A model generated the notes under the pieces. The model saw only the letters and a program-made list of their open reading frames with translations, was not told the DNA's origin and searched no databases. A DNA stretch of 64,000 nt. Origin: Curvularia clavata. Taxonomy: Eukaryota. This document shows positions 57,485 to 61,218 of the stretch, in pieces. Location: NCBI GenBank assembly GCA_023920165.1, contig CP089274.1, forward strand, positions 1,612,001 through 1,676,000, written 5' to 3'. Within the stretch, counting starts at the first letter, position 1, and each line of letters starts with the position of its first letter. The position numbers and the translations under genes were made by a program.

Positions 57485-59078
57485 AGACGGCGGTGCGGGT
57501 GCGGGTGCAAGCGGGCAAACCTCTCCCCGGCGAGACTCGACTGCTGGACAGGACGAGCCAGACTGGAAGACGTTGAGCCGCTGCTCGGTGGAGGCTGTGA
57601 GGGCGGGGGAGTGTCGAGTGCTGGGCTTGGAGGGCGGGTGTTTTTGTTAGGGAGCGAGGGAGCAAGAGCAAGCTGCCCTGCGCCTGGCTGGTGGTCGGTG
57701 GGTGGTGCCTTCCGCCGGATGGGCCTGCTGCCAAGCCTCGCGCCTGCCCTGCAAACGTCAAATGCAAAAAAGTCAACCAAGAAAAGCCGGCCGCCGTCTC
57801 TTGACGCCTCGCCGCCACGGCCTGTCCGTGTCGCCTTTGCACCTGCCCGTACCGTGGGTCGCTCTTGCCTTCACATGCCCTCGCCCGCCCGCCCGCCAGC
57901 CCACACACGACCACGACGACACACGACACGACACACGACACCTCGATACACGACAGTCATCACATAAGCAGCCGCCATGCTGCTCAGCCGAACTGACCCC
58001 GATGTCTCTTCACGACGCCGATCGTAGCCACTAGCACACGACGGCTGCTGTTGTTCCCTCGTCGCATACCAGTAGTCGAGCCATGGGCTAGCACGCCCTG
58101 CTACCTTGCCATCACCATCGACATGCCCATTGTCGGCACCTCGCCGGCCTCTCTAACAAGGCACTTCATTTGCGCATGCCAGGACCCCCCCTGGGCCACA
58201 GCCCGCCTGGTAGCGAATAAAGTCGCGCTTCCCATGTCCTACAAGTAGGTCCATCCATCTGCTCCTGTTCACCGCATGCGACAAATCGCCCCTCGCGCTA
58301 TTACCCGCATTGCCATCACGATGCTCTTTTTCAGGCCTCTGAAAAGTGCCGCGGCTGCCAGTAGGGCATGCATGTAAGCTGTGGCCACGACCGTGATTCA
58401 CGTCGCACCATGGCTGCCCTCTCTGCTACATGAGGCTCGAGCGGAACACGGCCCGTCTTTTGCAAAGCCACCGGAGCATTTGCATCTACACCATCTCAGC
58501 GTGTGTGTGTGCGAGTGTGCCCACTCGAGGCGAGCATAGCGTGCAGCCTTCCGCCCGCACATCCATGGCCCTTTTCCGCCATGCACATTATGCCGGCGTG
58601 GAAGCTTAACACAGCTCGCACCAATGGCGGCCGGGCTGCGTTGCAAATAAGGAAAAGCTTGAGCATCACGCGTCCAACGGGCGTGCAGATCTCTGCAAAG
58701 GGCAATTCGCGTTGCCCATCACGTGCAGATCCTTGCCGCCTCCACCATGCGACCGCGACGTCTACCCACTTTGTTGCGTGCCCATTGGCATTCCACTCTG
58801 CTGTCAGCCTAGACAATCATGTGTCTTCTTCATCATGCACTTTTAACCCTTTCTTTGCCAGTCATGACCCAGAGCTGGTCTACAAGCAGCCCCGCATGTT
58901 GCATCGACTAAGCTGCAGGGGCTCATGACGTGATGCGCCTGCGACGCTGCAACTGGCTCCAAACCTGCTCCACCACTGCACTGCTACATTCACCCTGTCA
59001 TGCAAACACGTCAACTGTCACTTCAAATCTGCTATTGCTTGCATGCCTGCCCGCGGCTCCACTGCACGTGCTGCTCTT

Positions 59079-60454
59079 CTATCCGCTGCCCGCACTGCCA
59101 AAATCTTCCTTGGCGTCCGGCCTGTCCCAACTGCTCTTCTCCAATGCCCTGACCCTGTCTAAGAGCACCCTGACCCTTCTGCTGTTTTCTGCTTTGGTCT
59201 GTTCCTGCAGCTTGAAAGTCTCCTGGAACCGCTCAGCCATGAAACGCGGAAGCGGCGACTTCTTGGCTGTCCTGTAGTCGTAAACCACAATGTCTTCAAT
59301 GCAACGCGCGGCCGGACGACGCTGGGCCTCGGAAAGAACCATGACATCAAGGATGAAATGATCGCTGTCTTGGCTAGGCTTCTTGCGGAGTTTGTGGAGT
59401 ACCGTAACCCTAGTGTTTATCTGTCAGAGTACGACTGATGCATAAACTCCATTAGCCATCATACTTATCTGGCCATTTCATAGGCTAAGGTCAACGTCAG
59501 CAAACTCTTGTCATATGTTTTCAAAGCACTGGAAAAGGGAACAACAAAAACAAACAAACAACTAAACAAATAAAAAGAATACATATCGGGAAAAATATGA
59601 AAGAACAAAGGGACCAGGAGTCATATGCATCCACTCACAAACTTGTAGTCGGTCTTGATACTCCGCAGGATCAAGCCAATGCTCTTCGGTGTCATGAGTT
59701 CCAACCACTCGGCTCTATGCTGCGGGTCGCTGGCTGCAAAGTTCAGCGTCCAGTTGACTCTGGCAGACTCTGCGTATCGGTTGTACATGACGTTGTTAAC
59801 GTGACCTGCAAATGCTCAGCACTACGTTACTTGAAGCAGAAGACGGTGACGAGGTAAATACCCTTTGACTTTATCAGCAATCATCCACCAACTCCTTGTG
59901 ATGGGCCTACCATGCTATCCTTTGCGCAATTAATATCCACATTAGTGTCCATTCATAGAAACGTCAGATGATGAAGCTAACCATCTCTCCCCAAACCACC
60001 TCTTGCCGGAACAGTCCCCGCCATTGCTTGCCGGTCAGAAAGCCTTCGCTTCCAGCCACGAGTTCTCTCCCTGGGGTAGATGTGAAAATCAACATTCCAG
60101 TGATTGGTGTACGATACCGAGCAATTATTCAACGGAAGACACTTACAGTTTTCCGATGTCTCCTGCAGTATTGAGCCGGCCTCTTCAACCTGTTCAGGAT
60201 TGATTCCAAAACTAATGCACTTTCCGATGCGCAATTTGACGTCTGAGAGCCACCTTGGACTGAGTGCAGCAGTCGCGGGGGACTTGTCTGCTCAAGAATG
60301 AAAATCAGTCCATCATGTTCTCGACTTCAATCACAACACATTGCTACCTACCACTTGATGTTGACTGATACCGCTCAAAGGAGAGGCGCTGTACCACTGA
60401 AAGCTGCCTAATCGACTTCAATCGGCAGATGGTTGAACGCACCAATGGCGACAT
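59079..60454 (-). CDS. Mitochondrial hotdog-fold (4HBT-like) acyl-CoA thioesterase; exons 60454-60352, 60287-60147, 60070-59982, 59919-59911, 59862, 59805-59639, 59484-59465, 59409-59079
   Basis: Basic presequence-like N-terminus; [89 protein letters not shown]. Confidence 0.88.
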
Positions 60455-60770
60455 GTTGGCAGATAGTACAGTATTGAAGCGTAAGGATTGCACTCTAGAA
60501 ATGGTATCTGTCACCCGGAGGATGCCACAATGCCAGCGCTCTTTTGCCCGAAAATGGCGGAAAAGAAGCCGAGGTTCCGCATCTCCAGGTTCCACCACAC
60601 AACTGCGCAAGGTCGGGAAACCGGGTCCGGGCGTGGCTCCACCTTCGACGATAACTCGTGTAGCAATCGATGACGTTTCACAGAACACTACACTTGACAG
60701 CCCAGCTATCTTTGACGGCAAGCGTCCTTCTCCTCCTGTTGCCTTCTTCAGAAGAAAAGCATTGACAACA

Positions 60771-61218
60771 ATGGCTGCTCCAAACCCAGCGCTTCGCCAC
60801 CAAGTCATCCGAATTTACAAGGGTCTGTCGTCCAAACGCGCCAATTGTTTACAACACGCGTATTCACTTAGAACAGAATTGCTTTACATGGGCCGGGAAT
60901 ATCCTCAGGGATACGACTATTTTCGCACCCGCTTGCACAAGGCATTCGCAAGTCAACGGGATTTGACCGACGAAGCCAAAATCAAGCAAGGCATCGAGAG
61001 GGCAGAATACGTGAAGAAAGGTGAATCTTGAGTAACGGAACCCCACACCTTTTCCCCGCTAATGGTTGATGGTCTAGAAATTGAGGCACTGTAAGCCCGA
61101 GCCGCAGGCCAAAAAAAAGAACAAAAAGTTTTCATGTAAAAGAGCTTTTGCTAACGGATACAGGTACTATCTGAAGCGTTATCGAACTCTGCGCCAGCGC
61201 TACGATCAAAGTGCCTAG
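60771..61218 (+). CDS. LYRM5: LYR-motif protein LYRM5/ETFRF1-like (4 exons, incl. 13-nt exon 61078-61090)
   Basis: [34 protein letters not shown]...[24 protein letters not shown]. Confidence 0.9.

Follow-up and report, generated by a model that had tools for sequence, protein, structure and literature searches.

Can a single nucleotide, wedged between the acceptor of one intron and the donor of the next, serve as an exon of a protein-coding gene? This question is raised by a predicted thioesterase gene of Curvularia clavata, located at 59079..60454 on the minus strand of a 64,000-nucleotide (nt) stretch of contig CP089274.1, the whole of which is here called the window. Within this gene, three short GT..AG introns (62, 48, and 56 nt) are packed into 176 nt and leave between them one exon of 9 nt and one of 1 nt. 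The sequence itself, the junction in the mRNA, the conservation of the arrangement, and the requirement of the reading frame were all observed directly, and they indicate that the lone G at 59862 is very probably a genuine, constitutively used 1-nt exon between two ordinary short U2-type introns.

Gene layout and the thioesterase motif

We set the coordinates of the gene by pattern search on the minus-strand sequence of 59300-60700. The gene runs from an ATG at 60454 to a stop codon at 59079 and comprises eight exons of 103, 141, 89, 9, 1, 167, 20, and 331 nt (the last including the stop), separated by seven introns of, in gene order, 64, 76, 62, 48, 56, 154, and 55 nt. Joining all eight exons yields a coding sequence of 861 nt that specifies 286 amino acids (aa).

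The unusual part begins at the 3' end of exon 3 (59982..60070, 89 nt), which closes with GGAGAGATG, read as ..GTT TGG GGA GAG ATG (V W G E M). Intron 3 (59920..59981, 62 nt, phase 0) has the form GTTAGC..ACTAAT..GCAAAG and is followed by exon 4 (59911..59919), whose 9 nt, GATAGCATG, encode Asp-Ser-Met and thereby supply the Asp of the motif D-x-x-G-H-V-N-N. Intron 4 (59863..59910, 48 nt, phase 0) reads GTAGGC..GCTGAT..TCAAAG, with GCTGAT lying 11 nt before the AG. Exon 5 (59862..59862) consists of one G, with which the Gly codon GGT in ..DSM-G-HVNN begins, and it sits directly between a canonical acceptor and a canonical donor, TCAAAG/G/GTATTT at 59868-59856 (slashes mark exon borders). Intron 5 (59806..59861, 56 nt, phase 1) reads GTATTT..GCTGAG..TTGCAG, and exon 6 (59639..59805, 167 nt) opens with GTCACGTTAACAAC, that is GT CAC GTT AAC AAC.., and carries a Pfam 4HBT_2 match. 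A sequence-only reading of the window had already given the coordinates, lengths, and end sequences of these introns and micro-exons, all of which proved correct by sequence and pattern search. The branch-like motifs that it had described, ACTAAT in intron 3, GCTGAT in intron 4, and GCTGAG in intron 5, are likewise present.

The reading frame depends on the lone nucleotide. With the G included, the protein reads ..VVWGEMDSMGHVNN.. and continues to 286 aa. When 59910-59806 is instead removed as one 105-nt intron, the translation becomes ..DSMVTLTT.. and meets a stop at codon 135, so the earlier claim that the G is needed for the frame holds.

We then considered the encoded protein. Against Pfam PF13279 (4HBT_2), exon 6 alone scores 31.0 bits (E 3.9e-07; cut-off 25.5), and exon 8 scores 25.4 bits (E 2.2e-05), just under the cut-off. 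A transcript-derived orthologue of 285 aa (P0009) reaches 95.5 bits and fills the profile completely, positions 1-122, starting from VVWGEMDSMG. The gene is a nuclear gene predicted to encode a 4HBT_2 hot-dog thioesterase. Its nearest named protein is COCVIDRAFT_33382 of Bipolaris victoriae (P0001), to which exon 6 is 100% identical over 55 aa, with about 80% identity over 265 aa; this places the window in a related member of the Pleosporaceae, close to Bipolaris but distinct from that strain. The spliced motif DSMGHVNN aligns with DSMGHVNN of 2fuj_A (VRWRDMDSMGHVNNAKY) and with DALGHVNN of 5byu_A (WGDMDALGHVNN), both solved bacterial homologues. Since these have the same start, homology requires the residues that the 9-nt and 1-nt exons encode. 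The Asp of D-x-x-G-H-V-N-N is one that we take to be catalytic, as in 4HBT/YbgC-type enzymes.

Junctions in spliced RNA

A 10-kb stretch around the gene matched 24 public runs, and four of them, from four studies (X1, X2, X9, and X20), were aligned over 59000-60700. The data are contigs, and contig assembly drops rare forms, which applies to every count given here. We treated the four runs as RNA because their contigs lack all introns of the gene and are accompanied by minor unspliced contigs: one of X1 (59380-59668) retains introns 6 and 7 at a depth of 17, compared with about 130-150 for the spliced form, and one of X2 (60041-60175) retains intron 2. Each of the four runs yields contigs without any intron of the gene, and each covers exon 3.

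The joints 60287/60352, 60069/60146, 59484/59639, and 59408/59464 are present in X1, X2, and X20, and a composite joint spanning introns 3-5 is present in all four runs. Introns 1, 2, 6, and 7 are thus confirmed directly by RNA joints, and introns 3-5 as one composite joint. Between introns 6 and 7 lies a second micro-exon, exon 7 (59465..59484), 20 nt long and encoding P M K W P D K-, with RNA joints on either side; record 10 of X20 includes a 21-letter piece placed at this exon.

The composite joint requires some care in reading. In the alignments, a single joint spans 59806 to 59976 and encloses three letters (CAT on the plus strand, ATG on the gene strand), and the aligned piece 59976-60069 carries exactly one mismatch in every run. 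In our reading, six letters of exon 4 were placed on the start of intron 3, whose GTTAGC differs from the exon-4 letters GATAGC at one position only, and the last exon letter, G, was placed on the final G of intron 5. Read in this way, the contigs hold 6 + 3 + 1 = 10 letters between exon 3 and GTCAC, and introns 3 and 5 are absent from them. The mRNA junction ATGGGTCA (gene strand) also occurs as the loose end of an X9 contig, where it appears on the plus strand as TGACCCAT; the predicted junction is therefore present in mRNA. X9 additionally holds contigs that are 90-95% alike and come from relatives, and two X9 contigs show the joint over introns 3-5. The proposal of the sequence-only reading that the 9-nt and 1-nt exons are both used, building WGEM-DSM-G-HVNN, is borne out by the contigs of four runs from four studies, by a partly spliced transcript of another species (locus L030, discussed below), and by orthologous proteins including 2fuj_A.

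Short fungal introns are recognised across the intron, a mode called intron definition. Introns 4 and 5 would accordingly act as adjacent, independent U2-type introns, each recognised across its own length. Because each of the three introns has its own donor, branch site, and acceptor, the length of the exon between them should not matter. After two separate reactions, only the lone G would stand between ATG and GTCAC, and the codons for Asp-Ser-Met-Gly-His-Val-Asn-Asn would be re-formed where the thioesterase domain begins. Exon 4 and intron 4 both end in G, and intron 5 and exon 6 both start with G. At both inner sites, positions -2, -1, +1, and +2 consequently hold the same bases in either order of removal; no order is dictated by the sequence, and the resulting mRNA would be the same. 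The earlier suggestion of an obligatory sequential splicing, beyond two ordinary reactions, thus finds no footing in the sequence. It is plausible that an acceptor complex on intron 4 and a U1 bound to the donor, a single base apart, would be unable to sit there simultaneously. We also considered whether the pair forms a stwintron in the strict sense and rejected this, as both introns have complete signals of their own, a G is retained between them, and neither is interrupted.

The same mRNA would arise if the spliceosome removed a single non-canonical intron of 104 nt, with GT..CA or TA..AG ends, in one reaction, the inner AG/G/GT being incidental. This skip gives the same ATGGGTCAC, so the RNA contigs cannot tell it from two introns, and no intermediates appear among them. 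Specifically, in the four runs no joint of 48, 56, or 105 nt alone is listed, no contig retains intron 4 or intron 5 alone, and no unspliced contig extends over 59855-59968. Since the contigs give no half-spliced forms, they do not separate two canonical introns from one 104-nt intron. On the other side, each half of the 104 nt has a branch-like motif at the usual distance, and all other RNA-confirmed introns of the gene (55-154 nt) are GT..AG, seen as CT..AC on the plus strand. The orthologous loci add further evidence on this point.

Orthologous loci and the age of the layout

An alignment of exon 6 with 14 homologues was used to pull 44 loci from metagenome contigs, and the 330 nt upstream of each were parsed. 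Three loci (L005, L019, and L035) allowed two candidate parses each, and we chose between them by branch distance or by homology of exon 4. Some of these metagenome relatives are about 93-95% identical to the window in exon 6.

The 1-nt exon layout, ATG/GT..AG/G/GT..AG/GN-CAY, was found in 27 of the 44 loci. By best match, these loci are nearest to Alternaria conjuncta (L002-L004, 93-96%), A. alternata (L008, L009, and L011, 92-93%), Pyrenophora (L006, L007, and L010, 77-87%), Parastagonospora nodorum (L019, 88%), Melanomma (L024, 72%), Plenodomus (L031-L033, 81% on exon 6), Cryomyces (L035, 73%), and Tuber brumale, T. indicum, and T. aestivum (L038-L042, 79-80% over about 280 aa). Eight loci, all Aureobasidium-like (86-99%), have a 2-nt exon instead, ATG/GT..AG/GG/GT..AG/N-CAY, with the second intron in phase 2. 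In these loci (L020-L023 and L025-L028) the sequence reads ..CAAG/GG/GTGAGT..AACAG/C CAT, about 60-120 nt upstream of the match start, and the second intron lies one base further on than in the window. Seven loci carry the first intron alone, ATG/GT..AG/GGN-CAY, with the Gly codon intact: L013 and L016 are nearest to Didymellaceae (Epicoccum and Ascochyta), L012 has Kalmusia sp. as its top match (48% over 715) followed by Stagonosporopsis and Ascochyta, and L036, L037, L043, and L044 form one separate clade. One further locus, L030, has lost introns 4 and 5, leaving ATG-G-GC-CAT contiguous, while the upstream intron 3 is kept, and L017 was too short to read.

Apart from this difference, L030 matches L031-L033 exactly, and those loci have both introns; we therefore regard L030 as a partly spliced transcript of another species, which makes it independent RNA support for the lone G. 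A Logan-derived protein, P0072 (MQGFGGRIQ-DSMG-HVNN..), looks like the L030 pattern in another Plenodomus-like species. Together, the two hint that introns 4 and 5 are removed either before intron 3 or together with it.

We collapsed identical or near-identical loci by eye, which reduced the 27 loci with a 1-nt exon to 16 lineages, or 17 with the window. AG/G/GTA is invariant in 17 of 17 lineages, whereas almost every other position from -30 to +12, the branch motif apart, varies. The conservation of AG-G-GT in orthologues, on which the sequence-only reading had wished to see its proposal checked, is thus found in 27 of 44 loci and in every lineage of this type. Because the arrangement is invariant while the surrounding intron positions vary, it is more than chance. 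In 13 of 17 copies of intron 4 and 14 of 17 copies of intron 5, a strict CTRAY precedes the AG by 5-45 nt; the remaining copies of intron 4 carry CTAAA or CTAAG. The donors differ at one position: a G at +5 is found in 16 of 17 lineages for intron 4 but in 3 of 17 for intron 5 (GTA[ACT]NN).

These data bear on the single 104-nt intron. The inner AG/G/GTA is invariant across 17 lineages whose introns otherwise differ, and the eight Aureobasidium-like loci would need TG..CA ends to be spliced in one step. In addition, seven relatives have intron 4 alone, with canonical GT..AG ends and at the same place; intron 4 therefore exists as a stand-alone canonical intron. We consider removal in one odd reaction very unlikely, and two separate splicing events the probable route.

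Another explanation holds that the assembly is short of one G after GATAGCATG, so that the real gene would have an ordinary 105-nt intron and no 1-nt exon. Its mRNA would look identical, and none of the four runs has proved to be DNA of this species. However, the 16 other lineages, from independent metagenome assemblies, all show ATG followed directly by GT, together with the inner AG/G/GTA. The same error in all 16 is not credible, which counts against an assembly error and leaves it a negligible chance.

The sequence-only reading had also proposed that inclusion of the G acts as an on/off switch, skipping of the base giving a frameshifted, stop-containing mRNA and turning the enzyme off. Skipping would indeed give a stop at codon 135, and in 14 of 17 lineages the intron-5 donor has a weak +5 position, as sites that can be regulated may have. 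Nevertheless, only the joint that includes the G is listed in the four runs at a reporting threshold of 1%, no contig in these runs joins 59911 to 59805 (although contigs would miss skipping at a low level), and intron 5 has been lost precisely, without apparent cost, in two separate groups of relatives. The loss in two groups suggests that the split has no needed function. Regulated inclusion is improbable on this evidence, and the G appears to be included without regulation, as a constitutive exon would be.

The loci also speak to the age of the layout. Most Pleosporales-like loci, and the Tuber-like loci, have intron 3 where the window has it; the Aureobasidium-like loci lack it. The Tuber-like loci (L038-L042), whose identity to Tuber proteins ranges over 79-86%, share introns 3-5, intron 6, the 1-nt exon, and the 9-nt exon (GATCCAATG) with the window. 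Global alignment scores of introns 4 and 5 between lineages are only 1-3.7 standard deviations above those of shuffled sequences, an excess that comes partly from shared splice signals, and say little about a common origin of these introns. We built a tree of 27 rows from exon 6 and a C-terminal piece, with 9 rows under half filled and a midpoint root. Support is good for only two of its 23 inner branches, and the branch leading to the Tuber-like row is very long. The tree needs three state changes, the layout with the first intron only arising in two places and the 2-nt state once. It is compatible with, although no proof of, a history in which the 1-nt state came first and intron 5 was later lost precisely on two occasions and moved by one base on another.

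We lean slightly towards the view that the AG/G/GT 1-nt exon and the 9-nt exon date back to the common ancestor of Pezizomycetes (Tuber-like) and Dothideomycetes and have been kept since, which would mean ancestry rather than convergence of the layout. The states among relatives would in that case line up as a natural series, with a 1-nt exon, the 2-nt exon of Aureobasidium-like fungi, whose second intron has moved by one base, and the absence of a second intron in Didymellaceae-like fungi and another clade. Given its systematically weak +5, the second donor may rely for its recognition on the acceptor that lies one base before it. If the layout is ancestral, this would be the oldest 1-nt exon on record, and the series would capture a one-base intron shift and a precise intron loss at a single codon.

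Several points weigh against a constitutive 1-nt exon of this age. The tree is poorly resolved and does not settle ancestry against repeated origin, and the taxa of the metagenome loci are best-match guesses. The weak +5 of the intron-5 donors could reflect an unusual way of recognising this intron. Regarding the RNA, the nature of the four runs was judged from the missing introns, the run labels being only guesses or '?'; the presence of the six exon-4 letters GATAGC in the mRNA was deduced from a mismatch that is counted but whose position is not displayed; and no splicing intermediate or lariat occurs among the contigs of the four runs. Finally, the genomic sequence for this species rests on the window and close relatives.

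Two other introns of the gene vary among the loci. In the Tuber-like L038, the intron after exon 6 begins GCAGGT (L038:1669-1674) and looks like a GC..AG intron. Among the loci that we looked at, those resembling Pleosporaceae, Didymellaceae, Phaeosphaeriaceae, and Plenodomus have the intron after exon 7 (59464-59410 in the window), and those resembling Melanomma, Aureobasidium, Cryomyces, and Tuber lack it, as do L036 and L044.

Public gene models and known ultra-short exons

Gene finders were expected to miss the micro-exons, and they do. P0001 passes directly from exon 2 to exon 6, and the motif WG[DE]x[DE]x[MF]GH[VI]NN is kept in only 26 of 79 database proteins of at least 200 aa (from 120 proteins listed) and missing in the other 53. 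The jump from exon 2 to exon 6 occurs in models of Bipolaris victoriae, Pyrenophora tritici-repentis, P. teres, Alternaria conjuncta, and Decorospora. Because 89 + 9 + 1 = 99 nt, it stays in frame and loses 33 codons. For the species of the window, no RNA joint in the four runs backs it.

Other models fail at the motif itself. All five Tuber models are wrong there. The T. indicum model reads DSMGNTACHVNN (DSM-G-NTAC-HVNN) and that of Plenodomus lingam reads DSMGMLLSPGHVNN (DSM-G-MLLSP-GHVNN). These two, together with the model of Parastagonospora nodorum, would be explained by the lone G followed by run-through into intron 5 (starting GTAAT.. and GTATG.. for the first two), which points to the same layout in those genomes. 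Public models of A. pullulans and Aureobasidium sp. read DSMTSHVNN or run through an intron, and many models, among them those of Diplodia, Botryosphaeria, Tolypocladium, Hirsutella, and Cosmosporella, read S or R just before HVNN. An S or R at this place is what a phase-2 acceptor (AG/N CAY) would give when read through, and the 2-nt exon may thus be more widespread. Family alignments and function predictions built on wrong Pezizomycotina models inherit the error in the motif.

An open frame at 60369-61028 on the plus strand lies head-to-head with the thioesterase gene and matches Complex1_LYR / LYR_2 (E 4.3e-07). RNA contigs of X2 and X20 start in this frame, from about 60633. LYR proteins bind acylated mitochondrial acyl carrier protein. 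The N-terminus of the thioesterase is basic, and its pairing with the LYR frame may not be accidental.

A literature search for 1-nt or 2-nt exons, or for micro-exons with thioesterase and fungi, found no paper on this gene, most subscription journals lying outside the search. The sequence-only reading had called 1-nt exons very rarely documented. The class is indeed very small, but fungal cases were published in 2025 and 2026, and the thioesterase gene joins a class that is already known. A close counterpart is the 1-nt exon of Fusarium CYP621A, presented in the available part of its description as the second case ever and the first from fungi (Nelson and Syed 2026; PMC12940212). As far as that text goes, the two genes share the order AG/G/GT, a G within the Gly codon of a conserved motif, two short flanking introns, read support from public runs, and omission by gene finders; CYP621A differs in that the G is the middle base of its codon, the gene encodes a P450, and conservation was followed within Fusarium, in 20 orthologues (PMC12940212). 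In the thioesterase gene, by comparison, the G is the first base of its codon, a 9-nt exon lies 48 nt upstream, and the layout extends over Pleosporales-like, other Dothideomycete-like, and Tuber-like loci, alongside variants with a 2-nt exon or no second intron.

The plant gene APC11 of Arabidopsis, in the portion of the report accessible to us, has a constitutive 1-nt exon between two canonical introns, and a constitutive 1-nt exon is what it shares with the thioesterase gene (Guo and Liu 2015; PMC4674806). For the basidiomycete Coprinopsis cinerea, the part of a long-read annotation that we consulted counts thirteen 1-nt and 57 2-nt exons; it agrees with our case in that fungi splice exons of 1-2 nt and that their omission breaks gene models, and differs in giving genome-wide counts (PMC12230235).

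Stwintrons are a related but distinct phenomenon. The accessible sections of two papers describe alternative [D1,2]/[A2,3] stwintrons with a proposed 1-nt intron shift (Fekete et al. 2017; PMC5587772) and stwintrons sensu lato in Lipomyces (PMC7138796). The likeness, according to these sections, lies in Pezizomycotina hosts, two short introns side by side, consecutive splicing, and introns of relatives one nucleotide apart; the difference is that a stwintron has either an internal intron that breaks up a splice signal of the external intron or two introns overlapping by a single G (PMC5587772, PMC7138796). In the thioesterase gene, both introns are complete, a G is retained between them, and neither depends on the other. 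In Drosophila, recursive splicing at zero-length exons uses AG/GT ratchet points, and a long interval is removed in two steps. Acceptor and donor are nearly superposed there as here; nothing is retained at a ratchet point, whereas one coding base is retained in the thioesterase gene.

Exons of 1 nt are a limit case that tests how the spliceosome defines exons and introns. To this, the thioesterase gene adds RNA support, a different fungal class and enzyme family, and a lone nucleotide that codes for part of the motif at which the domain starts. It also provides comparative material on whether introns can slide by one base and on how ultra-short exons arise and persist. What makes it stand out among the known cases is the breadth of loci, the series of 0, 1, and 2 nt at one codon, the scale of the public mis-annotation, and the apparent age of the arrangement.

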